Source of the DNA: an archaeon
Lineage (GTDB): Archaea > Nanobdellota > Nanobdellia > Pacearchaeales > GW2011-AR1
Assembly (NCBI GenBank): GCA_043822125.1
Contig: JBDRCB010000006.1
Location: 123,520-187,519, forward strand
Length of the DNA: 64,000 bases
Reading direction: 5' to 3'
Each line of letters begins with the position of its first letter. Positions within the stretch are counted from its first letter, which is position 1. The notes beneath the pieces were generated by a model. It had not been told where the DNA came from. It saw only the letters and a program-made list of their open reading frames with translations, and ran no database searches. A program made the translations under genes and the position numbers. This document shows positions 14,947 to 45,536 of this stretch, in pieces.

Positions 14947-15012
14947 AAGAAATCAGAGTTTATAATATTTTTTATAATATTTTCAAGTATCGGAAACTTA
15001 ACTTTTTTTGGA

Positions 15013-15084
15013 CGCCCACGCCGGGAGTCGAACCCGGGTTGCATCCGCGACAGGGATGTGTCATAGCCGTTAGACCACGTAGGC
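15013..15084 (-). tRNA. tRNA-Asp (anticodon GTC)
   Basis: Hand-folded cloverleaf on the minus strand. Acceptor stem GCCTACG/CGTGGGC with one G.U pair. Anticodon stem CATCC/GGATG with loop CTGTCGC. T-arm CCGGG-TTCGACT-CCCGG. Discriminator G. No encoded CCA. Confidence 0.8.
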
Positions 15085-15120
15085 ACGAGATATTAAGAAA
15101 AAATTTATTTTTAAAACTTG

Positions 15121-22351: not shown

Positions 22352-22420
22352 GTTTTTGGTTGGGAAAAAGAAAAGGCTTTGAAATTTATTATAGATTCAT
22401 AACTATTAGCACCCTTTAAC

Positions 22421-22440
22421 TTAACAAAGCCAAAACCCAG
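22421..22440. repeat. Left copy of a ~21-bp direct repeat TTAACAAAGCC(C)AAAACCCAG. It forms a perfect 9-bp hairpin (AACAAAGCC-loop-GGCTTTGTT) directly after the ATPase gene
   Basis: 20/21 identity with 31470..31490. The hairpin was verified by eye. Confidence 0.6.
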
Positions 22441-22611
22441 GCTTTGTTAAATAAGTCCTAATTTTAGTTTACTTTTTTAACAGAATTTCTAAGCACTTAG
22501 AATAAAATTAAATCCAAGAAGAACCAATATAGCGACATACCAATATTTATTCACAAAATCAAACCATTCCATAAAAGAAATTATACTTACTTATTAAAAA
22601 ATGTTTCTATT

Positions 22612-22761
22612 TTATATTTTCTTTTCATCCTTACATTTAGGACATTTCTTCGCTTTACCTTTCTTGTAAGGAAAGTGTCCGTGCTTGTCATAGAACTCTA
22701 AGTCATCTGTGCATCTCTTAATTAATTCTGGTGTTACTTTCTGAAATTTTTGTTTAGTCAT
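22612..22761 (-). CDS. 49-aa zinc-ribbon-like protein translationally coupled (ATGA overlap) to the upstream nuclease gene
   Basis: Hand translation gives MTKQKFQKVTPELIKRCTDDLEFYDKHGHFPYKKGKAKKCPKCKDEKKI (C...H.H...CxxC). It is below the ORF-track size cutoff. Confidence 0.3.
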   Translation of the reverse strand: MTKQKFQKVTPELIKRCTDDLEFYDKHGHFPYKKGKAKKCPKCKDEKKI

Positions 22762-24224
22762 TTAGCAATCTCCCTCAAAGCATTAACAATTTCAACTTCT
22801 GCCAGAGTATCTAAACAGCAATATTTCTCTAAAGCATCTCTAACTTTTTGTCGGTCTTCTTCTGAAACATCATTATAAGTAACTCGTGCAAATTCAAAAC
22901 TCGCAACATCACCTTTGGAAATATCCATTCCATCGTATTTTAAATCTGAGTGCAAAGGCAGAACTTTCTTTATACTAACCGAACCTTTTTGTTTGGAATC
23001 ATAATAATAGAATTTATCAAAAACTTCCATCAAATCTTTTATTCTTGGTAATAAGTTATCTTCTATTAATTCCTTATATTCTGGGAAAAATTCAGCAAGT
23101 TCTTTCAAAACCATCTTTTCAAACCTTTGATTATAAACCAAAATGTCTCCCTTATCGCCAAGATTATCTTTCAATGATTGAATTAATGTAGGTCTTGGGT
23201 CTTTTGTCCCTTCTGCCAAGAAAGAAATGTGTTTTAATTCTCCATTTGGTTTATCTTGAATATGCAAACTAAACTGAAAAGGAATCTGTTGATAAGGTCT
23301 TGAATTATCAAATCTTGGAACTGCTGAGCTAATTGTTTCAAAATCAAAATAATAAATTGGATATTGTAAGTTATCCAAAAACTCTTTTATTTGTTTTTTG
23401 TCAATATGCTTTTCTCCATTTTCTGCAACATATTTCTGAATACTTTGTTTATCATTAAGTTTAAACCAATTTGGAATATCAACCATTTTAATTATTCCTT
23501 CTTTGTAAAGTGGAACTGCTTTTTTCTTTAAAATTCTAACAAACTCAAAAATATTATTTTCTGGTAGAGATTCCATAAATTCATCTTTGGCGATATTGTC
23601 ATATTCAATAGTTAATAAATCATCAACTTGAAACTCTGGACATTCTCCATTAATACAATCTAACATAGTCATTGCTCTTGACTCTACTTTTTCAATAGAT
23701 TCAACTTTCTCTGTAACTTCTGTCTGCATTAAAAGTTCTTTAGAATTAATTTCTCCTTGTTTCACATAATCAGGATTTACATGGAGAACAAAACATTTTC
23801 TTATTTTCAAACCTGATTTTTCATAAACATATTTTTGGAAAGCCAAATCTTCTAAGTGAATTTTCTTAGCTTTTGTTGAACTCTTAACTTCAATAATATC
23901 CCATTTATCATTTTCAACAGGCAAGAGAATATCTCCTCTTGAATATAAATCTTCATGTAGAAAACTCGCCTGAAATAAAGGAACTCTTTTTTGTGTATGT
24001 TCTTTAGTCTTTTCTACTTGTTCGTCAAATTTAAATTTAGATAAATCAACAATATCGGGAAAAAGCTGTTTAGCATATTCTTCAATTACATAACCTTCTT
24101 CAAATCGTGCCTTGTCTAACTCTGTTAGCTCAGGTATTCTTTCTTTGTCGTTTTTGTTAATCCAAAGCCACCTCAAACATTGAATCCCACAAATGTAGTC
24201 GGATTTTGTTAGCATTTTAATCAC
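22758..24224 (-). CDS. RecB/Cas4-family PD-(D/E)xK nuclease domain protein (N-terminal nuclease plus ~300-aa uncharacterised C-terminal region, DUF2779-like)
   Basis: GDILLPVENDKWDIIEVKSS (D...EVK) and FQKYVYE (QxxxY) motifs. N-terminal CGIQC and C-terminal CC cysteines. It overlaps the specificity-subunit gene by 8 nt. Confidence 0.5.
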   Translation of the reverse strand: MIKMLTKSDYICGIQCLRWLWINKNDKERIPELTELDKARFEEGYVIEEYAKQLFPDIVDLSKFKFDEQVEKTKEHTQKRVPLFQASFLHEDLYSRGDILLPVENDKWDIIEVKSSTKAKKIHLEDLAFQKYVYEKSGLKIRKCFVLHVNPDYVKQGEINSKELLMQTEVTEKVESIEKVESRAMTMLDCINGECPEFQVDDLLTIEYDNIAKDEFMESLPENNIFEFVRILKKKAVPLYKEGIIKMVDIPNWFKLNDKQSIQKYVAENGEKHIDKKQIKEFLDNLQYPIYYFDFETISSAVPRFDNSRPYQQIPFQFSLHIQDKPNGELKHISFLAEGTKDPRPTLIQSLKDNLGDKGDILVYNQRFEKMVLKELAEFFPEYKELIEDNLLPRIKDLMEVFDKFYYYDSKQKGSVSIKKVLPLHSDLKYDGMDISKGDVASFEFARVTYNDVSEEDRQKVRDALEKYCCLDTLAEVEIVNALREIAK

Positions 24225-25317
24225 TTAGAATCTCAACTTTTAAATTTATTATTCTTTGGTAATTTTCTCTAATCCTTTCTTTAATTTCCTCAACTAAATT
24301 ATATTTTTCTGCAATTTCTTTTTGTTTTTCTAAATCAAACTCTCCCTTCTCATCAATTGGAACATTTATATTTAAGATGTACAATTTTTCATCTCCAACT
24401 TTATTTTTCCAATTAAATCCTTTTTCTTTAAAGAGGATTTTTAGTTTCCATAATAAAAATTCATAGTCTAAATGATTTGATTTTTTAACTAATAATTTTG
24501 CATCAGAATTAATACTAAATTTGTGTTTTGGTCTATAGAAGATTGTTCCAGCATAAACCCCATTTGTTGTTATTTGAACACATTCTATATTGTAATCAAA
24601 AGAATTTATACTCCCGAGAATCCCATTATTTTTTGTATTTGAAGAATAAACTGGGAATTCTCCCTCATTCACATTAACATATTTTTTTGTATATTTTGAA
24701 TTTCCCTTTTTCAGTTCAAAAATTTTATCAAAGGAAAAATTTTCTTTATTTCCCTCTAAAATTATTTCTACATTTAAATTTTCTATTCTATCATAATCTA
24801 ATTTTAATTTATCTTTTATAGATTCTATTTTATTGAATTTGCTTACTATCTCCTTTTGCTTTTCCAAATCAAATTTTCCATCTTTTCTTAATGGGATTTT
24901 TATTTCTAAATTTCTTAGTTTTCCTTTGTATAGTTTATTATTCTTATTAAGTCCCAATGAAGGAAGTATGTTATTTATTTCAATTGCTACAAAAGGGAGA
25001 TAAATTTCATCAGATTTTGTTATAATTATATTTAAGACATCATTGGCATAGAAAGTTTCATCTCTAAAGAAAGCCGAATAATCTGTAGCATCCGCATTAA
25101 TAGTTATACATTCTCCAGAAAATTTTTTAGATTTTGGAACAATTTCCTTTATTTTATCCGAAACAAAACCTAATGATTCTCCTTTGTATTTTGATGAACT
25201 ATATACTGGAATATTTCCTTCTGCTTTATTTATGTCTTCTTTCCTTATTCTTTCTCCGTTGTCTACCTGAAAATACTTCTCGTCTCCTAAACTAATTTTT
25301 GTAAAAGAAGTCTCCAT
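24217..25317 (-). CDS. hsdS: Restriction-modification specificity (S) subunit with two target-recognition domains
   Basis: Duplicated conserved regions GKFDLEKQKEIVSKFNKIESIKDKLKLDYDRIENL and GEFDLEKQKEIAEKYNLVEEIKERIRENYQRIINL separate two variable domains. It overlaps the upstream methyltransferase gene. Confidence 0.75.
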   Translation of the reverse strand: METSFTKISLGDEKYFQVDNGERIRKEDINKAEGNIPVYSSSKYKGESLGFVSDKIKEIVPKSKKFSGECITINADATDYSAFFRDETFYANDVLNIIITKSDEIYLPFVAIEINNILPSLGLNKNNKLYKGKLRNLEIKIPLRKDGKFDLEKQKEIVSKFNKIESIKDKLKLDYDRIENLNVEIILEGNKENFSFDKIFELKKGNSKYTKKYVNVNEGEFPVYSSNTKNNGILGSINSFDYNIECVQITTNGVYAGTIFYRPKHKFSINSDAKLLVKKSNHLDYEFLLWKLKILFKEKGFNWKNKVGDEKLYILNINVPIDEKGEFDLEKQKEIAEKYNLVEEIKERIRENYQRIINLKVEILSD

Positions 25318-27497
25318 TATAATTCCTCCAAAATTTTACTTAGTTCCTCAAAATCATTTTGTATATTTTTTATTTCTTCTTTAAATTCTTCAATAGTTAT
25401 TACTTCCTCTTTTTTAGTTATCCCAATCTTTTCTTTCTCTTCTTTTTTCCACCATCTTTCAATAATCCAGTGTTTTTCTTCATCAAATTTATCAAAAGGA
25501 ATCATTTTACAACGAGGGTCATCAGAATCAAATGTTTTAGGGCTTCCTTTAGACTGATTAAATAAATTCTTTGCTTTATCTAAATCATTTTCTTCTATTT
25601 CAAATCTATCAACATTCAATTTTTCTCCAATATTGGAAACTAAATAAGTGAATACAGGGAAATCTTGAATTTCTTTTTCATCATTCTTTTTTGTTATTAC
25701 CAAAATATATGTTTTTTGAGGGGTATTGAAAAATGTTTTCATAGGAAGAGAGATAACTGCATTAACATAACAATATTTTTTTACTTCATCTCTCATCTTC
25801 TGATTAACAGGCAGATTAAAAATGCTATCAGGAAGTATAATAAAAGCAGTACCTTCTTTCTTTAGGTTTGATAAAATCCATTTTAAACTTAATCCTTGAA
25901 CCCCTGCACCACTATTTGAATAAAAATCCTCCAAACCTTCTTCTTCAATTTCTTTTCTTATTGTACTCATACCGCTTGTTATATAAGGCGGATTTGTCAA
26001 AATTAAATCTGGTTTATCTTCTTCGTCATCAAACATCTCTCTAAATGTTCCCAAATTTGAATCAGATAAAAAGTGAAAAGTTTCATTAATTAATTCGGAA
26101 AATTTATTGGTAAGGGTGGGATTTTTTTCAACCAAATCTGAAAGATAAATTAGCATATTTGCTTTTGCCAAAATTATTGTTCTTCTTTGTTCATCATTAT
26201 CTTCTCTTCCACTATCATAACCCAACAATTTAACACTGGAATTAATCTTGCCTCCTTTAGGTGTAAACTTATTTTTTATACTTGAAGAGATTTGGAAAGG
26301 CTCCAACACGAATCCTCCCACCCCACAAAAAGGGTCGCAGATAAATTTGGACTTGTCAATATCTGCCATCTCAACGATAGATTTAACCACTTTTCTTGGA
26401 GTGAAGAATTGCCCCAATTTACTTTTATCTTTACTCTGTTTCAAAAATGTTTCAAAAAGTTTTGTTTTAAACTCTTTTTTTATGTGTCTCAAATCTCCGA
26501 ATTTCTGATATTTTTCAATTGTATCTTTAAATAATGTTGCTTGAGACAGCACAGGGGTTCCATCTTTATTAACAAATATTGTTCCATTTATTATTCCTGT
26601 TTGGTCATTTCCAGCAGGAAATAATTCTTTTATTTTCTTTCTACACTTTGTAGCATAATGTTCAAGAACTTCTTTGTTGGGATAGCCTTCATTATACATT
26701 TTTATAAGATGATTAAAACTATAATCTCTTTGCAAAACACCCAAATCACTCAAAAACTTAAATATGAAAACCTCAACAACATTATAAAGACAAGCAGTTG
26801 GATTATCCTTTGTACTTATATAGATGCTTTGCCAAACATTTTTTGCGAGAGGTGTGGGGTCTGTCTTTTCCGTAGCTTTTAAAATTGAATTGTCTTTATC
26901 TGTTTCAAGAAGAACCCTTTCAATAGTTTGATATGTTTCTTTTGTGTCGTCATCAAATTTATTAATATCTTTTTGATTCTTTTCTTTCAAATAGAATTTC
27001 TTTTGTAGTTTCTGTTTATCATCATTTAGTATAAAAGAATAGCTTCTTTTTCTTCCAAATTCATCTTTATAAGAATTTGTTTTATCTTCATCATTTGGAT
27101 TTATCCAATGAGTAACAATACCGTCGGTGATTACCCCCATTTTTGCATTTAACACTTGGCACACATCGTTACATTGTTCAATGGCTTTTTTCTTTTGTTT
27201 GTCTGTTTGAAATTCCTTTGGTTTTTTCCATTCTATAGAAACTAAAACTTGAGGAACTTTTTTATTTCTCCTATCCACTACTAAACCATCTGCTCTCCTT
27301 TTTTCATAGTCCCCATAACTCTTTTTTTCAATAACCCTGCTTGATTTGTATTGTTTTATTGTTGTAGAATGTAACGGAAAGAATTCATACTCTCCAACAA
27401 AGATTCCTTGCTTATCTAATCCTCTTGAAATCTGCTCTTCACTTGCCATATATTTAACAGGTTTTTTCCCTTTATAGATTTTTCCCTTGCGATTCAT
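25317..27497 (-). CDS. N6-adenine DNA methyltransferase (gamma class) with a ~230-aa N-terminal extension that may be a PD-(D/E)xK endonuclease. Candidate BcgI-like Type IIB restriction-modification A subunit, or an HsdM-like protein
   Basis: QFFTPRKVV (motif X), DPFCGVGGFV (motif I FxGxG), LILTNPPY (motif IV). The N-terminus has D-x(n)-E-x-K (LVVD...VSIEWKK). There is no helicase-type HsdR anywhere in the operon. Confidence 0.7.
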   Translation of the reverse strand: MNRKGKIYKGKKPVKYMASEEQISRGLDKQGIFVGEYEFFPLHSTTIKQYKSSRVIEKKSYGDYEKRRADGLVVDRRNKKVPQVLVSIEWKKPKEFQTDKQKKKAIEQCNDVCQVLNAKMGVITDGIVTHWINPNDEDKTNSYKDEFGRKRSYSFILNDDKQKLQKKFYLKEKNQKDINKFDDDTKETYQTIERVLLETDKDNSILKATEKTDPTPLAKNVWQSIYISTKDNPTACLYNVVEVFIFKFLSDLGVLQRDYSFNHLIKMYNEGYPNKEVLEHYATKCRKKIKELFPAGNDQTGIINGTIFVNKDGTPVLSQATLFKDTIEKYQKFGDLRHIKKEFKTKLFETFLKQSKDKSKLGQFFTPRKVVKSIVEMADIDKSKFICDPFCGVGGFVLEPFQISSSIKNKFTPKGGKINSSVKLLGYDSGREDNDEQRRTIILAKANMLIYLSDLVEKNPTLTNKFSELINETFHFLSDSNLGTFREMFDDEEDKPDLILTNPPYITSGMSTIRKEIEEEGLEDFYSNSGAGVQGLSLKWILSNLKKEGTAFIILPDSIFNLPVNQKMRDEVKKYCYVNAVISLPMKTFFNTPQKTYILVITKKNDEKEIQDFPVFTYLVSNIGEKLNVDRFEIEENDLDKAKNLFNQSKGSPKTFDSDDPRCKMIPFDKFDEEKHWIIERWWKKEEKEKIGITKKEEVITIEEFKEEIKNIQNDFEELSKILEEL

Positions 27498-28762
27498 CTT
27501 ATCACCTCTTTCTCAACAACAAACTCTCCCCTAACTCCGAGTTCATTTATTTCCTGAATAATTACGCAAATGTTATGGCAAAGAATTTTTAAGAGAAGTT
27601 CGTTGATTTGTGCTGTCTTAGTTTTAGAACGAAGATTATCTTTAAACTTCGTCTTAATCATGTGGAACACCGTCTCAACATTACTCCTCTTATGATAATG
27701 TTCTAAAAACTCATCATGCTTGTAAATAAAATAATGATACATTTTTTTCCATATTCCACAACTTGCTCTTTTGCCACGAACATTTTTCTTAAAGGGAATG
27801 AAGGGGACAGCACCAACATCCTCAATCGCTTGTAAGTTCTTACGAGAACTGTAAGCCTTGTCTCCACTTACTTCGCCCACCCTAAAAGTCTTAGCTGTCT
27901 CCTCAACTAAGCGAGGCAATGAAGGACTATCATTCACCTCTCCTTCAGTAATTTCACATCCAGTTATAATGTTAGTTTTTGTTCCTGAAATTAAATGTGC
28001 CTTTAACCAAACTCTATATTTTCTTTCCTTTCCCCATTTTGTATCAAACCATCTCGCAAATCTTGAAGTAGAAAAACCTGAACTGTCAACTGCAAAATTT
28101 GTTTCAAATTCTTTTAATGGACTTGCACTAATAGAGATTAATTGTTTTAGAATTTCTGTTAAATCTTCTCTTTGCATAAAATAACAAATATTAGCATAGG
28201 TGCAAGTTGTTTCAACAAGATTCATTTCTTTTGCTATCTTGAAATCAGAGATAAATCTTCTTAGACTAAAAGTGGAATAAACTTTCAATGCAGAGGCAAA
28301 CAACATATCTGAAATTGGAAGTGTTGGTCTTCCAAATTTATATTCTGGTTGTTCAATATTACCACATAAATCTTTGAGCAATTTCATAAAAATTAATTTC
28401 TCATTTGTCTGTGCATTATTGTAAGCCTTCCAATCCTGTTGATAAGAAATTTTAACTCCTTTTGTTTCTGTTACTTGTCCTTCTTCATTTATCTGTCTCT
28501 TTACATAAAATTCTACTGCGTAAATATGCTTACACTTTTTATGCCTCATAGCACAATCAGGACAAGAACAAACTGGTCTGTCTTTCATAAGTTTCACTAC
28601 ATATTGTTTTGAAGTATTTGTTTGGGAAGTGACTCTCCAACCTTGAGAAACTTTTACTATTCTTGTTGATTTAGCCAAAAGCTTTCCTCGTTCTTCTCTT
28701 GTGAGATTCTTCCAATCTGTTTTTAATGTTTGTTCCATTTTATATAATTCGGTACCATACAT
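27494..28762 (-). mobile_element. IS4/IS5-superfamily DDE transposase with N-terminal SWIM-type zinc finger (insertion-sequence transposase gene)
   Basis: CSCPDCAMRHKKCKHIYAV (SWIM CxCxnCxH). DDE residues in VDSSGFS / GDKAYSS / Y-x2-R-x3-E-x6-K (YHKRSNVETVFHMIK, the YREK signature). Terminal inverted repeats were not identified by eye. Confidence 0.7.
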
Positions 28763-28795
28763 ACTTTATATACTTTTCGGTACCACAAAATATAC
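28749..28795. repeat. Two tandem imperfect copies of a TCGGTACCA(N)A..TAT.ACTTT element spanning the transposase start codon and the upstream region of gene 28819..29403. A third copy lies at 30912..30930
   Basis: TCGGTACCATACATACTTTATATACTTT / TCGGTACCACAAAATATACTTTAG. The third copy is GTCGGTACCATAATTTATAT immediately before the ATG of the HEPN gene. Confidence 0.45.
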
Positions 28796-28818
28796 TTTAG
28801 AAAGGTTTATATAGTTAA

Positions 28819-29403
28819 ATGGTTTTACTAAAACCATTAAGAAAAATGGTAGTAAAACCTAAGACAGAATTAAATGAGAAGGAGATATTCAGTTTATCTC
28901 GTGATGATAGAGAATTATATATCCAGAGATATATTTTAAGTTTATTAGAATCTAACAAGACCTCTGGACTAACCTTGAATACTCTCAATCGCTTGGTTAC
29001 TTTTGTTAGTAAACCTACTTTACTTAAACACCTGAATACATTAATGGCTAAAAGACAAATATACAAGGTTAAAAGAGGAAATGCGGTTGAATATTATCCA
29101 AATCATAGACCATTGCATCCTTTAATAAGCAAAATCATAACTCTTCAAAAAAAGAAATATAAATTCCAATTAATTGAATACGAAGATGGATTACAATTAT
29201 ATATACAAGAAATTAATAGAAATGTTTATGGAAAAGAAGAGGTTGCTGGAGGAATTTTGATACCCTTTACAGATTTAAACCAAATAACTACTTATCTCCA
29301 AAAAATAGAAAAAGAAAAATTAAAAATAATTGAAAATTTTAAACAGCAAAAAATAAAAGAGATAGAATCTAAAATAGATGGGGAAGAATACAATGAGTAC
29401 TAA
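28819..29403 (+). CDS. Winged-helix DNA-binding protein (putative regulator)
   Basis: wHTH-like segment YILSLLESNKTSGLTLNTLNRLVTFVSKPTLLKHLNTLMAKRQIYKVKRGNAVEYY. Its 3' end overlaps the next gene by 26 nt. Confidence 0.4.
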   Translation: MVLLKPLRKMVVKPKTELNEKEIFSLSRDDRELYIQRYILSLLESNKTSGLTLNTLNRLVTFVSKPTLLKHLNTLMAKRQIYKVKRGNAVEYYPNHRPLHPLISKIITLQKKKYKFQLIEYEDGLQLYIQEINRNVYGKEEVAGGILIPFTDLNQITTYLQKIEKEKLKIIENFKQQKIKEIESKIDGEEYNEY

Positions 29404-30715
29404 TCTAAAAAATTCAGTTTATGCAGTAAGTCAGGAATCAGATTACCTCACAAAAAAAGTCAGATACGAAAATAAGGTCAATGGAAAATTATTAATTATG
29501 CCCCTATTTTCTCCTTATATAAGAAGTTCTTTTGATTTGAAGATTCTTACCAAGTATATTTCAGATTATAATTATTCTCATAATTTAAGGGGGATTGTTG
29601 TGCCTATAGATAGAGCTGATTTATTAGATAAGGTTCCAGAAACTATGAAAAATACTTCTCTTGTGATTATAGATACACTTCCAGAAGTTTTTTATTATGG
29701 TTCTCTGAAAAAAGAAATTTATCAAAGGTATTCAAAAATTTCTGGATTACCTAAAGAAATAGTAAAGTTATTACAAACGCCAAATAATACACAAAATTGG
29801 GCTTCAAAAGAAGACCAATATTCAGAGATGATTGATTCAATTTTATTAGAAGATGATGTTAGGGTTAAACTAACTACGGCTGTAATAAATGCACAATTAG
29901 AAAAAGATGTGGATATAGTAATACCTTTCTCTCCTTTAATATTAAATGATTCAGTAAGTTTTCTTGCAACCCAAAGATTTTATGAACAGGCTCAAAGATT
30001 ATTTTTAGGAACTATAACAGATATAGACGAAGAACTTGGAAAGAGAATAGCATTACCTTTATTCCTTCATGAATCCATTCTATTTAATACAAAATTAATA
30101 AATCAAATTATTAATTATATTAATACCAATGAACATGCCTCAATTGTATTAAAAATATACTTTTCTGGAAATAAAAATGTTAAAGATTTAGATTTTGACC
30201 AAGTTATAAATTTATCAAATTTACTAAAAGCTATAGGGATTTATTCCAAATTTAATTCCTGCCCCGTACACTTACTTTGTGATTTATCTCTTGGATTAAT
30301 TTCTCTAATGTATGGATTTGATAGTTATTCCCAACCATTTAATGATAAGCAAATTGAAACAGAAGGAGCTCCAGATATAACAAAATTAAAATTAAGGAAT
30401 CCTACAATTGATTATGGAAAAATCTATAGTATGGATTTAAGGAAAAAAATTTACCACAAAAATTATGTCGCTCATATAAAATATAATAAAAATATCCTTC
30501 CATGTCCTGCAAATAAATATTGCAACAAACACATAAGTGGTTTAGATGTTTTAAATATGAAAAGACATACCTTTTGGGAACATGCAAGACTTCATAATTT
30601 AGAGAGTAAAAATTATGAGATAGATGAGATATTAGATTCAATACGGGAAAAAACTATTAGAGTCTTTAAAAGTAGATTTAATAACTTTTTTAATCAAGCA
30701 ATACTCCCAAATTAA
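29378..30715 (+). CDS. Uncharacterised 445-aa protein (no recognisable catalytic motif; C-terminal Cys/His cluster CPANKYCNKH...H...H)
   Basis: Long ORF in a low-GC genome, coupled to the upstream wHTH gene. Internal repeat-like PLFSPYI / PFSPLIL segments. Confidence 0.45.
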   Translation: MGKNTMSTNLKNSVYAVSQESDYLTKKVRYENKVNGKLLIMPLFSPYIRSSFDLKILTKYISDYNYSHNLRGIVVPIDRADLLDKVPETMKNTSLVIIDTLPEVFYYGSLKKEIYQRYSKISGLPKEIVKLLQTPNNTQNWASKEDQYSEMIDSILLEDDVRVKLTTAVINAQLEKDVDIVIPFSPLILNDSVSFLATQRFYEQAQRLFLGTITDIDEELGKRIALPLFLHESILFNTKLINQIINYINTNEHASIVLKIYFSGNKNVKDLDFDQVINLSNLLKAIGIYSKFNSCPVHLLCDLSLGLISLMYGFDSYSQPFNDKQIETEGAPDITKLKLRNPTIDYGKIYSMDLRKKIYHKNYVAHIKYNKNILPCPANKYCNKHISGLDVLNMKRHTFWEHARLHNLESKNYEIDEILDSIREKTIRVFKSRFNNFFNQAILPN

Positions 30716-30930
30716 TTCTTTGATTTTTCAATAATAATTTTTCCTTTCTCAGCCCTTACATGAAGCCTCTTACCTAAAAGACCAGAAATTTTTACAATTT
30801 CTTTTGGTATTGATGGAATCATATATTTTTTGTATTCTTTATCACCAACCTTTTTATTAGATACTTCTGCAATTTTCATTAATTAAATTAGAATAATAAT
30901 ATTTATAAATATGTCGGTACCATAATTTAT

Positions 30931-31446
30931 ATGGAAAGAACTAATGAAATGTTAAAGTTGGGCGAAGCATTTGTTAATGAGGGGATTAAAAGGTTGAAGG
31001 AATATAAAATAGAAAGACCAAATTTTATATATGACCGACACAAAATGATTATAAAAAAGAGATTTGCTGTTGTTGAGTTTATTAATGGATTAGAATTAAT
31101 TCTAAAGGCGGTTATGATAAGAAAAGGGTATAATATCTATATCTTAAAAAGGAAATTATTCAAAAAGAATGAGAAGATGTCTAACATGATTAATCCAAAA
31201 AGAACTATAGATTTATTGGATGTAATTGAATTTTTTAGAAAAAATTATCGTGATTTACCTTTCAATGGGATTGATGAACTAAGAGAAATAAGAAACCAAA
31301 TTGTCCATAAGGGAACTGAAATAGGGACAAAAAAGAGAGAATATTTTATTGATTCAATAAATTGTATAATTGGTATATATAGCCAAGAAGGAATTAAACA
31401 CAGAAAATTCTTAACACAGCTGGAGGGGTCAAAAGAACTTATTTGA
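30931..31446 (+). CDS. HEPN-domain protein (canonical R-x4-H motif)
   Basis: LREIRNQIVHKG near the C-terminus, all-helical composition, 171 aa. Confidence 0.5.
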   Translation: MERTNEMLKLGEAFVNEGIKRLKEYKIERPNFIYDRHKMIIKKRFAVVEFINGLELILKAVMIRKGYNIYILKRKLFKKNEKMSNMINPKRTIDLLDVIEFFRKNYRDLPFNGIDELREIRNQIVHKGTEIGTKKREYFIDSINCIIGIYSQEGIKHRKFLTQLEGSKELI

Positions 31447-31469
31447 CTTTTTTAACAAGGGCTACTTAT

Positions 31470-31490
31470 TTAACAAAGCCCAAAACCCAG
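31470..31490. repeat. Right copy of the ~21-bp direct repeat bracketing the 22.4-31.5 kb island (no complementary hairpin half here)
   Basis: TTAACAAAGCCCAAAACCCAG, 35 nt upstream of rps10. Confidence 0.6.
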
Positions 31491-31524: not shown

Positions 31525-31833
31525 ATGCCGAAAGTAAGAATAAAATTAAACAGCACAGACATTAGCATGCTTAATTCTATTTGCGAATCTATCAAGGAAA
31601 TAGCGAAAAAATCAGGAATAACTATCAGCGGTCCTGTTCCACTTCCGACAAAAAAACTCAAAGTCACGACGAGAAAATCACCTTGTGGAGACGGCACAGC
31701 GACTTTTGACAGATTTGAAATGCGGATTCACAAGCGTCTGATTGACCTGCCTGCAAATGAAAAAGTCCTGCACCACATTATGAGAATGAGAATCCCGAAA
31801 AATGTCAATATTAAAATTGAAATGAAAGATTAA
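31525..31833 (+). CDS. rps10: 30S ribosomal protein S10 (uS10)
   Basis: KVRIKLNSTDISMLNSICESIKEIAKKSGITISGPVPLPTKKLKVTTRKSPCGDGTATFDRFEMRIHKRLIDL matches the archaeal uS10 pattern. Confidence 0.9.
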   Translation: MPKVRIKLNSTDISMLNSICESIKEIAKKSGITISGPVPLPTKKLKVTTRKSPCGDGTATFDRFEMRIHKRLIDLPANEKVLHHIMRMRIPKNVNIKIEMKD

Positions 31834-44750: not shown

Positions 44751-45536
44751 ATGGGAATATATTCGCATTCTAAATTAAGCGCTTTTGAGCAGTGTCCTCT
44801 GAAGTTCAAATTAAGATACATAGACAAAATAATTCCTGAATCAGAAAAAACAATTGAATCCCATTTAGGAAGTGTAGTTCATTCTGTTCTTGAAATCCTG
44901 CACACAAAAGCCAAGAAAGGAAAAATATTATCTGTTGAAGAAGTAATAAAACATTATTTCAAAAAATGGGAAGAGTGCTACAAACCAGAAATTGTGATTG
45001 TCAGAAAAGACACAACAGCAGAAGATTATTTTAACAAAGGAATTAAATTTCTGACAGATTATTACAGGAAAAACCACCCGTTCGAAGAAAACACTCTCGC
45101 AGTTGAGAAAAAAATTAAAATTGAATTGGGAGAGCATTCTATTGTAGGATTTATAGACCGCCTGGTGCACAATGCTGAAAAAGATGAATATGAAATACAT
45201 GATTATAAAACAGCAAACAGTATGCCCTTGAGAGAAGCAGTAGAAAACGACAGACAGCTTGCTCTTTATTCCCTTGCTATAAAAGAAATTTTCGGGCAGG
45301 AAAAAAAAGTCTGCCTTGTGTGGCACTATCTCGCGCACAATCAAAAAATCCGCTCCCGAAGGACAGACGAACAGCTGGAAAAACTAAAAAAAGAAGTTCT
45401 GGAATTAATTGAAAAAATAGAATCAACAGATAATTTTCATCCATATATTTCAAAACTCTGCGATTGGTGCGAATATAAATCCATGTGCTATGCATGGACA
45501 AAAAATCACAAGCAAAAAGAGCTGGATATTTGGTGA
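44751..45536 (+). CDS. Cas4-like PD-(D/E)xK exonuclease with Fe-S cluster cysteines (RecB-family nuclease)
   Basis: N-terminal EQCPLKFKLRY. FIDRLVHNAEKDEYEIHDYKT (D...E.K). DRQLALYSLA (QxxxY). C-terminal CDWCEYKSMC. Confidence 0.6.
   Translation: MGIYSHSKLSAFEQCPLKFKLRYIDKIIPESEKTIESHLGSVVHSVLEILHTKAKKGKILSVEEVIKHYFKKWEECYKPEIVIVRKDTTAEDYFNKGIKFLTDYYRKNHPFEENTLAVEKKIKIELGEHSIVGFIDRLVHNAEKDEYEIHDYKTANSMPLREAVENDRQLALYSLAIKEIFGQEKKVCLVWHYLAHNQKIRSRRTDEQLEKLKKEVLELIEKIESTDNFHPYISKLCDWCEYKSMCYAWTKNHKQKELDIW

Follow-up and report, generated by a model that had tools for sequence, protein, structure and literature searches.

A cut-and-paste transposon of a DPANN archaeon carries a predicted BcgI-like restriction-modification module together with a DUF2779 nuclease gene

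The four-gene restriction operon at positions 22612-27497 of the window (the 64,000-nucleotide stretch of archaeal contig JBDRCB010000006.1 that was analysed) is cargo of a 9,041-bp cut-and-paste DNA transposon in a DPANN (Pacearchaeota-like) host. The region was identified as a transposon because its terminal inverted repeats (TIRs), its target-site duplication (TSD) and the homology breakpoints coincide. The element as a whole is probably best explained as a transposon carrying a self-contained restriction-modification (RM) system and a DUF2779 gene, possibly an optional accessory. The features are listed below by coordinates and strand.

22431-22439, unstranded: TSD copy 1, CAAAACCCA; the same 9-mer flanks the element on both sides
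22440-31480, minus: whole transposon, IS5 family with IS903-type ends and cargo
22440-22456, plus: TIR at the operon-downstream end, GGCTTTGTTAAATAAGT, perfect over 17 nt
22612-22761, minus: 49-aa small protein, not a demonstrated zinc ribbon
22758-24215, minus: DUF2779 protein, Cas4/Exo5-like PD-(D/E)xK nuclease plus DEDDy 3'-5' exonuclease (Pfam, AF2, Foldseek)
24217-25317, minus: specificity (S) subunit, 366 aa, two target-recognition domains (TRDs) (Pfam, PADLOC, tblastn)
25317-27497, minus: BcgI-A-like subunit, 726 aa, with a PD-(D/E)xK-type domain, a helical linker and a gamma-class N6-adenine methyltransferase (MTase)
27494-28762, minus: transposase, 422 aa, N-terminal SWIM zinc finger and DDE_Tnp_1, IS5 family (Pfam)
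28819-29403, plus: 194-aa cargo gene, weakly similar to winged-helix/DUF7342-like proteins, missing from L004
29378-30715, plus: 445-aa cargo gene of no recognisable family, missing from L004 and L006
30712-30879, minus: 55-aa AbrB/MazE-like protein (weak MazE_antitoxin match), encoded by one of the backbone genes of this family of elements
30931-31446, plus: 171-aa DUF3644 protein (PF12358 at 3.5e-8), adjoining the upstream element end
31446-31462: degenerate second TIR copy, internal to the transposase-upstream TIR
31464-31480, minus: TIR at the transposase-upstream end, perfect over 17 nt
31481-31489, unstranded: TSD copy 2, CAAAACCCA, the same 9-mer

The insertion site has a P-type ATPase gene on one side and rpS10 on the other. 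Homology of the window to two sister loci, L004 and L006, ends precisely at 22440 and 31480, and the GC content is 0.255-0.304 across positions 23001-27000 compared with approximately 0.32-0.36 in the flanks. The closest known counterparts of the ends belong to the IS903 group of the IS5 family. IS903B has the inverted repeat GGCTTTGTTGAATAAATC and 9-bp direct repeats (PMC10569121); the window TIRs, which start GGCTTTGTT.AATAA, are identical to it at 15 of 17 positions, and the TSD is also 9 bp long. Sisters and cousins of the element share its ends and occupy other sites with other duplications. L004 has identical TIRs and the TSD CGTTTCTAA, L013 has the same TIRs and the TSD ACAGCTTAC, and L022 and other loci likewise combine these TIRs with differing TSDs. 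Perfect 9-bp TSDs were found in 22 of 26 bracketed elements (20 of 24 when non-redundant), which range in size from 3.1 to 11.4 kb. While IS903 is about 1 kb long, every complete element found in this family is 3-11 kb and bears cargo. The inverted repeat is doubled at one end; the degenerate second copy was also detected in L004, L006, L022, L061 and L074.

The transposase matched DDE_Tnp_1 at 1.9e-24 and SWIM at 1.3e-4, and scored 130.8 bits against NCBIfam IS5_2, under the cutoff of 140. As in IS903/IS903B, its DDE_Tnp_1 domain has the YREK signature (Y356-R359-E363-K370), which is invariant among homologues, as are C65xC67...C77xH79 and the DDE signature. It nevertheless shares just 25-28% identity with bacterial IS5/ISAba13-type enzymes and has the extra N-terminal SWIM zinc finger. 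Its true start is likely M9, at position 28738; a relative, P0250, is annotated at 414 aa. Metagenomes yielded 429 relatives and the protein database at least 6,896, and the named hosts of the element family are archaea, DPANN for the most part. Besides IS903, the closest known systems are IS-derived transposons of bacteria that carry passenger genes (ISfinder 'tIS', unit transposons). The transposase gene has the orientation of the four-gene operon and its stop overlaps the upstream ATG of the MTase gene (ATGA). The genes for the transposase, the R-M and S subunits, the DUF2779 nuclease and the small protein probably form one five-gene transcription unit. The sequence-only reading had overlooked this fifth gene, as well as the inverted repeats and the target duplication, and hence that the operon is carried by a transposon.

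Restriction-modification genes make up most of the cargo of the family. When 90 ORFs of 18 elements were surveyed, the matches were N6_Mtase (7), N6_N4_Mtase (5), Eco57I (4), Methylase_S (4), MmeI_Mtase (4), HSDR_N_2 (3) and PDDEXK_1 (3), with one each for C5 MTase, MvaI/BcnI and GmrSD. The transposon would mobilise the entire RM and nuclease package and, by analogy with established RM biology, the RM system may in turn stabilise the element via post-segregational killing.

The four minus-strand ORFs reported before (49, 488, 366 and 726 aa) are present at the coordinates given there, the 488-aa ORF at 22758-24224, and each of the three large proteins has homologues in the thousands and is therefore not a chance ORF. 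The described overlaps of 1, 8 and 4 nt follow from the ORF coordinates, but the 8-nt one is probably not real. The homologue consensus (MLTKS...) supports an ATG at 24215 as the DUF2779 start, which would leave a TAA-A-ATG junction with a 1-nt spacer; this stop-N-ATG arrangement is common to the window, L004 and L006. The other junctions, TAATG at MTase/S and ATGA at DUF2779/49-aa gene, each have a Shine-Dalgarno-like GGAGG or AGGGAG upstream. The MTase start is ambiguous and may be either the upstream ATG or M17 (27449): residues 1-16 lack conservation and have a pLDDT of 33, and homologues begin at the equivalent of M17.

In the 726-aa protein the MTase is identified by motif I (DPFCGVGGF) and motif IV (NPPY, residues 502-505), and the PD-(D/E)xK-type domain spans approximately residues 30-135. 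The D-x(n)-E-x-K pattern noticed earlier in this region corresponds to D70, E89 and K91, invariant in 39 homologues. The profile matches of the N-terminus were all weak and were limited to PD-(D/E)xK families (HSDR_N_2, VRR_NUC, DUF2726 and RE_BsaWI), and the region was modelled as alpha-beta-beta-beta-alpha-beta with a pLDDT of about 90. A profile search of the protein returned no HsdM_N match. Foldseek aligned 690-720 columns with BsaXI, BpuSI and DrdV (about 700 with BsaXI), against 480-570 with HsdM proteins, and phmmer matched RM.BsaXI at 3.4e-7. Sister cargo MTases in L006, L022, L030 and L039 have above-threshold HSDR_N or HSDR_N_2 domains. The S subunit showed two Methylase_S stretches (1.8e-19), a PADLOC Specificity_I match and an internal repeat detected by tblastn. 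No hsdR was found within the element by profile searches, as the sequence-only reading had it. The MTase and S genes also occur as a pair elsewhere: a 76% identical pair stands by itself in a bacterial genome, as a module of two genes, and a 75% identical one lies in a 5.2-kb transposon lacking DUF2779. The MTase family, with more than 3,000 members, includes fusions with one TRD (~900 aa) and two TRDs (~1,100 aa).

From the sequences and models, we strongly infer that the 726-aa and 366-aa proteins constitute a self-contained BcgI-like (Type IIB-like) enzyme; the absence of HsdM_N, the invariant D...ExK, the Foldseek lengths and the stand-alone module bear out the earlier assignment to the BcgI type rather than to classical Type I. 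BcgI-type enzymes are related to HsdM and HsdS, and the relatives of BcgI and BsaXI include single-chain R-M-S fusions such as AloI and CjeI. The layout of the window system is that of BcgI and BsaXI, with a predicted N-terminal PD-(D/E)xK endonuclease and a gamma-class N6-adenine MTase in one chain and a separate HsdS-like two-TRD subunit. In contrast, sequence similarity to BsaXI is limited to the MTase core, the nuclease domain gives no sequence match against the PDB, and double-sided cleavage is putative here. The two-TRD S subunit would direct the fused nuclease and MTase, and the enzyme would methylate host sites and, needing neither helicase nor R subunit, cut unmethylated DNA. Since the MTase has its own predicted nuclease domain and occurs as a stand-alone module, no extra nuclease would be needed.

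The 488-aa protein had been described as a RecB/Cas4-family nuclease. The Cas4-like domain is present, and the D...EVK and QxxxY motifs noted in it (D98, E112-V-K114, Q130xxxY134) are invariant in homologues, but the protein is not a plain nuclease of this kind. It matched PF11074 (DUF2779) at 9.9e-43 and combines a Cas4/Exo5-like domain (residues ~1-210) with a DEDDy 3'-5' exonuclease (residues ~285-488), in which D294, E296, D397, Y468 and D472 are also invariant. The AF2 model (pLDDT 94.5) matched Cas4 (4ic1/8d3l), Exo5 (7lw8), 3'hExo (1zbh) and RNase T (3v9u) in Foldseek. This architecture is that of the known DUF2779 family (PMC3985635; PMC13621843). The window protein shares the two-domain layout, Cas4-like PD-(D/E)xK plus DEDD(h/y), of family F.17 of Majorek et al. 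2014, MMSYN1_0389 of JCVI-syn3.0 and NCBIfam UU173, keeps all catalytic residues and, like them, mostly lacks the Cas4 Fe-S cysteines. It differs from the described members in being transposon cargo abutting an RM operon, a context unmentioned in the DUF2779 papers examined (PMC3985635; PMC13621843).

Cas4-family nucleases are recurrently linked to restriction genes. In the window element, L004 and L006, DUF2779 was retained while the RM genes between it and the transposase were swapped: DUF2779 is 87-90% and the transposase 91-92% identical, compared with 67% or 26% for the intervening MTase and 36% or undetectable identity for S. These three elements share ancestry and were counted as one acquisition. 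In L039 and L047, a 215-aa, four-cysteine solo Cas4 (PDDEXK_1) occupies the same slot, straight after MTase and S. Elsewhere, DUF2779 neighbours include HsdR-S-M, GmrSD, and an HNH plus N6_N4 MTase pair at ~0.8 kb. In a small sample of 10 independent DPANN contexts, 5 have DUF2779 no more than 1 kb from restriction genes, which are of differing types (p ~0.002, if an RM gene is assumed to lie this close by chance with a probability of <= 0.1). Among the other 60 window genes, none matched an RM model at E<=1e-5. The claim that such a configuration is not described was wrong in part: Hudaiberdiev et al. 2017 reported solo-Cas4 adjoining RM genes in several CRISPR-less DPANN genomes and proposed that it serves uncharacterised defence pathways (PMC5704561). 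L039 and L047 are exactly of this kind. Unlike those solo-Cas4 proteins, the window protein has an added DEDDy domain; DUF2779 occurs 0 times in that paper, and the transposons treated there are casposons only, with no IS-type placement.

We tentatively propose, from gene contents and gene order, that DUF2779 may be an optional, exchangeable end-processing accessory beside restriction systems and not a restriction subunit. In bacteria, RecBCD/AddAB act after restriction, and their exonuclease destroys fragments with double-strand ends. DUF2779 would provide a similar second stage, the restriction enzyme making ends that the 3'-5' DEDDy domain and the Cas4/Exo5-like domain, with its 5'-3' or single-strand activity, would degrade or blunt, so that cut invader DNA escapes repair; this step would perhaps also supply nucleotide salvage. 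DUF2779 differs in having no helicase domain, and the relationship is deduced from gene order alone. DPANN archaea would repeatedly set DUF2779 beside restriction systems of several types.

Two other readings of the MTase and S genes were weighed. The least probable is a strong version of the sequence-only reading, in which MTase and S lack a nuclease of their own and DUF2779 does the cutting in a novel composite RM system. Tight gene coupling, the missing hsdR, the weak profile recognition of the MTase N-terminal domain and the recurrence of Cas4-family genes downstream of MTase and S would fit it. However, D70/E89/K91 are invariant across the MTase family, the 75-76% identical pairs have neither DUF2779 nor a Cas4 gene, MTase and S modules also lack DUF2779 in L013, L016-L019, L040 and L049, and such a nuclease is missing from 3 of 8 MTase+S transposons; moreover, DUF2779 also adjoins complete Type I and Type IV systems with their own nucleases, and sits in ribosomal gene clusters. 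It is also very improbable that the pair is an ordinary Type I HsdM-HsdS orphan beside an unrelated nuclease, with hsdR elsewhere. HsdM_N is missing, the ~215 additional N-terminal residues are predicted to fold into a domain whose D...ExK is invariant, single-chain fusions as in this family are typical of Type IIB/IIG, the HSDR_N_2 domains of the sister MTases are strong, and the module travels as just two genes on a transposon and in bacteria.

As for DUF2779 itself, it is doubtful, although less so, that the gene is a hitch-hiker, i.e., a Pacearchaeota housekeeping repair or nucleotide-recycling exonuclease captured from the host chromosome, with no functional tie to RM and with its other restriction neighbours due to variable-gene clustering. 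Homologues (54-84% identity) occur in many DPANN genomes, RM-free loci included, and half of those sampled lie in housekeeping contexts (L001-L003; rpL11/rpL1 and rpS19e/rpL31e clusters). The family is quasi-essential in the minimal Mycoplasma JCVI-syn3.0 (PMC13621843), DUF2779 is carried, among 80 loci, only by the clade whose transposases are at least 91% identical, and the RM module would function as a unit without it. Against this stand the stop-N-ATG junction and the retention of DUF2779 while upstream RM genes were replaced, the parallel acquisition of solo Cas4 in the same slot, the four kinds of restriction genes near it in half of the independent contexts, and the count of 0 RM-like genes among the 60 other window genes. 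It appears improbable that DUF2779 helps the transposon by resecting the donor-site double-strand break after excision, followed by repair from the sister copy, with RM genes as interchangeable cargo. The conserved framework of DUF2779 and transposase in the three sister elements and the IS903-type DDE cut-and-paste enzyme are compatible with such a role, but 77 of 80 transposase loci, including the 84%-identical L022, lack DUF2779 and yet have fresh TSDs, and DUF2779 is widespread at loci with no transposase near it.

The 49-aa protein, taken earlier for a zinc ribbon, is a member of a very small family in which the core is VTPExIKxCTDxLEFYDKHGxFP and CxxC is not conserved. Its gene is specific to the window copy of the element, and in L004 and L006 the slot holds a DUF4268/NucS-like gene. 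The 55-aa protein has counterparts of 65-67% identity in L004 and L006, and many relatives contain it; its L013 counterpart matched MazE at 6.4e-9. The 171-aa DUF3644 protein is 94% identical in L004.

The operon was examined at the level of gene calls, junctions and gene starts. ORF calling, together with family searches for the transposase, gave the following genes:

22612-22761, minus strand, 49-aa gene
22758-24224 as called, minus strand, 488-aa gene (DUF2779 protein)
24217-25317, minus strand, 366-aa gene (specificity subunit, S)
25317-27497, minus strand, 726-aa gene (methyltransferase, MTase)
27494-28762, co-oriented with the other four, transposase gene with a SWIM zinc finger and a DDE_Tnp_1 domain (IS5-family)

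A sequence-only reading of this DNA had described the first four as an operon, and all four were found exactly at its coordinates. That reading overlooked the fifth co-oriented gene, the transposase, the stop of which overlaps the upstream ATG of the MTase gene. The MTase/S junction is TAATG, the 488-aa/49-aa junction is ATGA, and a Shine-Dalgarno-like GGAGG or AGGGAG precedes each of the two, so translational coupling of the packed genes is plausible. Homologues of the 488-aa protein start at its residue 4 (MLTKS...); therefore, the S/DUF2779 junction is TAA-A-ATG, with a one-base spacer common to the window and two sister loci. Since residues 1-16 of the MTase show neither conservation nor structure, its true start may be M17. 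The host is a DPANN archaeon, and close homologues of the window proteins are named Pacearchaeota or Nanoarchaeota in the database records.

The boundaries of the mobile unit were determined by comparison with the contigs encoding the closest DUF2779 homologues, those of the sister elements L004 (87% identity) and L006 (89.5%). Homology with these contigs begins and ends at window positions 31480 and 22440, where a perfect 17-nt inverted repeat, GGCTTTGTTAAATAAGT, was found at both ends, each copy flanked by the same 9-mer, CAAAACCCA. The element is thus 22440-31480. It comprises a DUF3644 gene, an AbrB/MazE-like gene, a 194-aa and a 445-aa gene specific to this copy, the transposase gene and the four genes of the operon. 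Its GC content is 0.255-0.304 over 23001-27000, compared with about 0.32-0.36 in the flanks. In L004, identical inverted repeats lie 8,060 bp apart and the flanking 9-mer is CGTTTCTAA; in the related transposon L013, from a 2-Mb archaeal genome, the repeats carry one substitution, lie 5,214 bp apart and are flanked by ACAGCTTAC. The inverted repeat of IS903B is GGCTTTGTTGAATAAATC and its direct repeat is 9 bp (PMC10569121); the window repeat is identical to the former at 15 of 17 positions and its target-site duplication has the same length. Terminal repeats in the IS903 group are about 18 bp and start with that same sequence. These results demonstrated that the operon is cargo of a DDE transposon whose ends are of the IS903 type, and that this transposon has moved. 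The reconstructed empty site (...TTAACAAAGCCAAAACCCAGAAACC...) is a spacer of 123 bp that separates a P-type ATPase gene from rpS10; to search for this empty site, the neighboring rpS10 protein was matched exactly against the records, and nothing was found.

Two other explanations of the boundaries were rejected. An integrase-generated island with att sites was considered, for which the sole tRNA of the window (15009-15085) is relevant; the flanking repeats are 9-bp duplications beside inverted, not direct, ends. A common terminator or REP-like motif was also discarded as the origin of the boundary hairpin, as the 17-mer and the 20-mer occur solely at the two element ends within the 64-kb window.

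The transposon was inserted 44 nt upstream of the start codon of rpS10 (31525-31833, plus strand), leaving 35 nt between the target duplication and the ATG. Because the insertion is so close, any promoter of rpS10 must either be contained in these few nucleotides or fire outwards from the end of the element. Just outside the element, at 22419-22431 and overlapping the first base of the duplication, is ACTTAACAAAGCC, which equals the terminal sequence of the element, ACTTATTTAACAAAGCC, minus 4 nt and forms a hairpin together with the adjacent terminal repeat. This sequence may have been left behind by an earlier insertion, or it may reflect a preference for repeat-like targets. Upstream of the transposase, the terminal repeat is followed directly on its inner side by another copy of itself, degenerate with 3 mismatches, at 31446-31462. 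The same doubling was found at L004 2562, L006 455, L022 73, L061 7927 and L074 145, and ACTTTTTTAACA is present at both ends of the element in the same orientation. The doubled repeat and ACTTTTTTAACA are possibly extra binding sites for the transposase.

The transposase matched PF01609 (DDE_Tnp_1) with an E-value of 1.9e-24, and residues D226 and D301 as well as Y356, R359, E363 and K370 (YREK) are invariant, a DDE/YREK signature like that of the IS903 group of the IS5 family. It is 25-28% identical to bacterial IS5/ISAba13-type enzymes. The NCBIfam IS5_2 model aligns from residue 110 and gave 130.8 bits, under its cutoff of 140; outside the aligned region is an N-terminal SWIM finger (residues 54-87, CxC...CxH) with C65xC67...C77xH79 invariant. 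A metagenome scan with this protein recovered 429 relatives, from which 80 loci were fetched. Inverted repeats were found on both sides of the transposase in 26 of the 80, and 22 of these 26 bracketed elements (20/24 after removal of duplicates) have a perfect 9-bp target-site duplication, the sequence of which differs between independent contigs. At least 6,896 relatives of the transposase exist, and most clusters were seen on a single contig. While a simple IS of about 1 kb encodes a transposase alone, the window element is 9,041 bp long with about nine genes, and all 24 non-redundant bracketed relatives measure 3.1-11.4 kb. It is therefore a cargo-carrying derivative and not an IS in the strict sense.

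The MTase has an N6_Mtase domain at residues 346-653 with NPPY at 502-505. A Pfam search found no HsdM_N (PF12161), and the score against the TIGR00497 hsdM model was 33.8 bits, with a cutoff of 242. Its N-terminal region of about 215 residues was modeled as a folded alpha-beta-beta-beta-alpha-beta domain (pLDDT about 90) in which D70 opens one strand and E89-x-K91 closes the next, and all 39 homologues compared (53-76% identity) keep D70, E89 and K91. The profile matches of this region were weak and all to PD-(D/E)xK families (HSDR_N_2 in 14 of 39 members, VRR_NUC, DUF2726 and RE_BsaWI); a profile of the domain alone had no match among PDB sequences, and its alignment to a bona fide HSDR_N_2 N-terminus was in register and not significant. 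Foldseek aligned the MTase model over 690-720 columns with the fused nuclease-methyltransferases BsaXI (Type IIB), BpuSI and DrdV, compared with 480-570 columns for Type I HsdM proteins. The context is more persuasive than this domain-level evidence for a nuclease domain. Non-orthologous MTases in the same slot of L006, L022, L030 and L039 have HSDR_N or HSDR_N_2 above threshold. The family includes proteins of about 710 aa whose S is encoded separately, of about 900 aa with one fused target-recognition domain and of about 1,100 aa with two, the same span of architectures as among Type IIB/IIG enzymes. Homologous pairs also stand alone, one, 76% identical, as a module of just two genes in the genome of a bacterium and another, 75% identical, as cargo of the 5.2-kb L013 without a further nuclease. 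The S protein matched Methylase_S in two stretches (1.8e-19) and has an internal repeat and two target-recognition domains, as expected of the separate HsdS-like subunit of a BcgI-like system. Type I systems have an HsdR (SF2 helicase and nuclease) subunit; here, neither the element nor the other 60 genes of the window include an hsdR. Type IIB enzymes cut the two strands on either side of a bipartite site and require AdoMet and Mg2+. Taken together, the conserved residues, the model, the context and the two target-recognition domains support with good confidence the original proposal of a BcgI-like rather than Type I system. We concluded that no additional restriction subunit is needed, and the pair is strongly inferred to be a predicted self-sufficient Type IIB-like enzyme.

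The 488-aa protein had been taken for a RecB/Cas4-family nuclease. The Cas4-like domain was confirmed, but the protein is a full-length member of a known family, PF11074/DUF2779 (145.8 bits against a Pfam gathering score of 23.3; homologue P0001 is annotated as DUF2779 domain-containing), and has an added DEDD exonuclease domain. Its model (pLDDT 94.5) was divided into two halves according to the position of the Pfam domain and the motif locations, and Foldseek retrieved Cas4 (4ic1, 8d3l), Exo5 (7lw8) and, as DEDD exonucleases, 3'hExo and RNase T. In both active sites the residues are invariant, the first site consisting of D98, E112-x-K114 and Q130-x3-Y134 and the second of D294-x-E296, D397 and Y468-x3-D472. 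It differs from CRISPR-associated Cas4 in that the four iron-sulfur cysteines are not conserved, with C16 alone near-invariant; PADLOC Cas4 models matched at only about 8e-4, and the window contains no tandem or CRISPR array and no cas1/cas2. The two-domain architecture is already in the literature: DUF2779 was placed among 3'-5' exonucleases, fused to a PD-(D/E)xK-like DUF83 domain (Majorek et al. 2014, PMC3985635), and a 2026 analysis of JCVI-syn3.0 described the quasi-essential MMSYN1_0389 as Cas4-like plus DEDDh (PMC13621843), neither of them reporting biochemistry. Any functional handle on a family that is quasi-essential in a minimal Mycoplasma cell would be useful. As to a second DUF2779 paralogue in the same genome, P0006, 86% identical to the window protein, was considered, and the window holds no second copy.

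Relatives of the 49-aa protein form nine 50%-identity clusters, its own included, out of 1.8 billion representatives; the core VTPExIKxCTDxLEFYDKHGxFP (residues 3-34) is common to them, their tails vary, and family-model searches gave no match. The label of zinc ribbon could not be kept: there is a single CxxC instead of two conserved knuckles, and it is unique to this copy, being absent from the seven relatives P0242-P0248. This gene is variable cargo and not a conserved fourth component. Its identification with the 80-aa gene downstream of the chromosomal DUF2779 in L007-L012 was rejected, since the two are unrelated. In L004 (9479-10555) and L006 (7526-7900) the slot after DUF2779 holds a gene for a 358-aa protein with a NucS-like N-terminus (NCBIfam NucS, 2.9e-10, below cutoff) and a C-terminal DUF4268, a predicted third nuclease in those operons. 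The overlapping 194-aa (weakly winged-helix/DUF7342-like) and 445-aa genes at 28819-30715 (plus strand) sit between the AbrB-like gene and the transposase and are absent from L004 and L006; the 445-aa protein has no family in Pfam or NCBIfam. The 194-, 445-, 171- and 55-aa proteins had no NCBIfam match, and in Pfam only DUF3644 was found, in the 171-aa protein.

Comparison of the three sister elements showed that the modules are exchanged on a constant backbone. Their transposases are 91-92% and their DUF2779 proteins 87-90% identical. Of the genes in between, the MTase shares 67% or 26% identity, and S either shares 36% or can no longer be recognised. In the comparison with L006, the stop of the transposase gene and the start of DUF2779 are the exact points where homology breaks off. 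In the cousins L039 and L047, a 215-aa four-cysteine solo Cas4 occupies the same slot after a nuclease-MTase and S. No significant similarity between it and the DUF2779 N-terminus was detected by blastp or phmmer, so the two represent independent acquisitions. In other DPANN genomes, DUF2779 was found 36 nt upstream of an hsdR-hsdS-hsdM series, abutting GmrSD, between GmrSD and a C5-MTase/Dam/HNH cluster, or about 0.8 kb from an HNH and N6_N4 MTase pair. Counting independent contexts, DUF2779 has restriction genes at a distance of at most 1 kb in five of ten, and these are of four kinds; in contrast, none of the other 60 window genes matched a restriction-modification model at E<=1e-5. The corresponding p of about 0.002 presumes a restriction background of at most 0.1, an assumed value. 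The recurrent linkage of this nuclease with MTase and S genes, suggested as a check at the outset, was found in part: other homologues lie between rpL11 and rpL1 or beside rpS19e/rpL31e, and three genomes have no restriction neighbour. Gene neighborhoods support a tie that would be real but optional, not obligatory. Nor is the configuration wholly undescribed, as had been thought, since solo Cas4 adjoining restriction-modification genes was remarked in several DPANN genomes (Hudaiberdiev et al. 2017, PMC5704561).

One Pacearchaeota locus (L102, 130-10606) combines a protein-primed-type PolB (DNA_pol_B_2), DUF4238, GmrSD, DUF2779, C5 and Dam-type MTases and HNH_2, and looks like a mobile or defence island. 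In L007-L012 (e.g., L007 7214-10791), a 78%-identical DUF2779 and the 80-aa gene lie between rpL11 and rpL1, within the conserved Spt5-L11-L1-L10-L12 cluster, an unusual place for a nuclease gene.

We propose, tentatively, a reading in two parts, the caution applying to both taken together. Cas4-family exonucleases, DUF2779 or solo Cas4, would constitute a modular second restriction stage in CRISPR-less DPANN archaea, coupled downstream to enzymes of Type IIB-like, Type I or Type IV systems, and would destroy or trim the ends that these enzymes make; and a very large, undescribed family of IS903-ended SWIM-DDE cargo transposons would shuffle restriction packages among archaea. In the mechanism preferred here, DUF2779 would act after restriction cleavage, its 5'-3' or single-strand nuclease and its 3'-5' exonuclease removing overhangs and degrading fragments, as a helicase-less counterpart of RecBCD in its post-restriction role. 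For a Type IIB enzyme, the processed DNA could include the short, prespacer-sized fragment excised around the recognition site. DUF2779 might double as a nucleotide salvage enzyme in an organism unable to make nucleotides, and post-segregational killing by the restriction-modification system may in addition help to keep the transposon stable.

According to the main rival explanation, DUF2779 was captured as a housekeeping nuclease and has nothing to do with restriction. This is a serious if doubtful possibility; the copies in ribosomal clusters and in restriction-free neighborhoods fit it, and the five contexts near restriction genes speak for a tie. A role as a transposon helper is improbable: among the 80 loci, DUF2779 is carried by the closest transposon clade alone, and homologues occur in chromosomal sites. 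Although the genes are packed in one operon, the idea that the nuclease acts as the restriction component is very unlikely, because the restriction-modification module exists without DUF2779 and carries its own predicted nuclease domain. If DUF2779 were a mere hitch-hiker, the locus would be a well-defined example of restriction-modification mobility and otherwise ordinary. The same backbone with swapped restriction modules and DUF2779, solo Cas4 or nothing offers a clean natural experiment, which makes the roles of the solo Cas4 and DUF2779 nucleases directly testable.

Taken singly, the parts of the locus are familiar: an IS5/IS903-type transposon, a BcgI-like restriction-modification system, the DUF2779 family and a solo Cas4 beside restriction genes in DPANN. 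Judging from the searchable literature, what appears to be new is a large family of archaeal SWIM-DDE transposons with IS903-type ends, always with cargo and mostly with restriction genes, the presence of DUF2779 in transposon cargo, and the natural swap experiment itself. DPANN archaea, host-dependent organisms with very small genomes, mostly lack CRISPR; their defence and gene exchange are poorly understood, and the locus bears on both. A simple DDE transposon, with ends nearly those of the bacterial IS903 and thousands of relatives, can serve as the vehicle of their restriction systems. According to Krupovic et al. 2019 (PMC6563490), no passenger-carrying DNA transposon had by then been detected in archaea; since then, the only archaeal cargo DNA transposons found in the literature were the Heimdallarchaeial 'aloposons' (PMC11529989).

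Bacterial plasmid DUF2779 genes (L107-L110) neighbor WYL regulators, AAA ATPases, NERD, PLD-family and PD-(D/E)xK nucleases and a DEAD helicase, with no restriction-modification genes beside them. This is suggestive only, pointing to defence-like operons that would contain DUF2779. Outside the transposon, the window also contains a second, chromosomal solo Cas4-like gene (44751-45536, plus strand, 261 aa) with the RecB motif D...DYK...QLALY and a CxxCxnC cysteine cluster. One window gene matched the PADLOC Cas4 models (best E=2e-12), and it is presumably this one, since it is the sole window ORF matching the RecB-motif scan.
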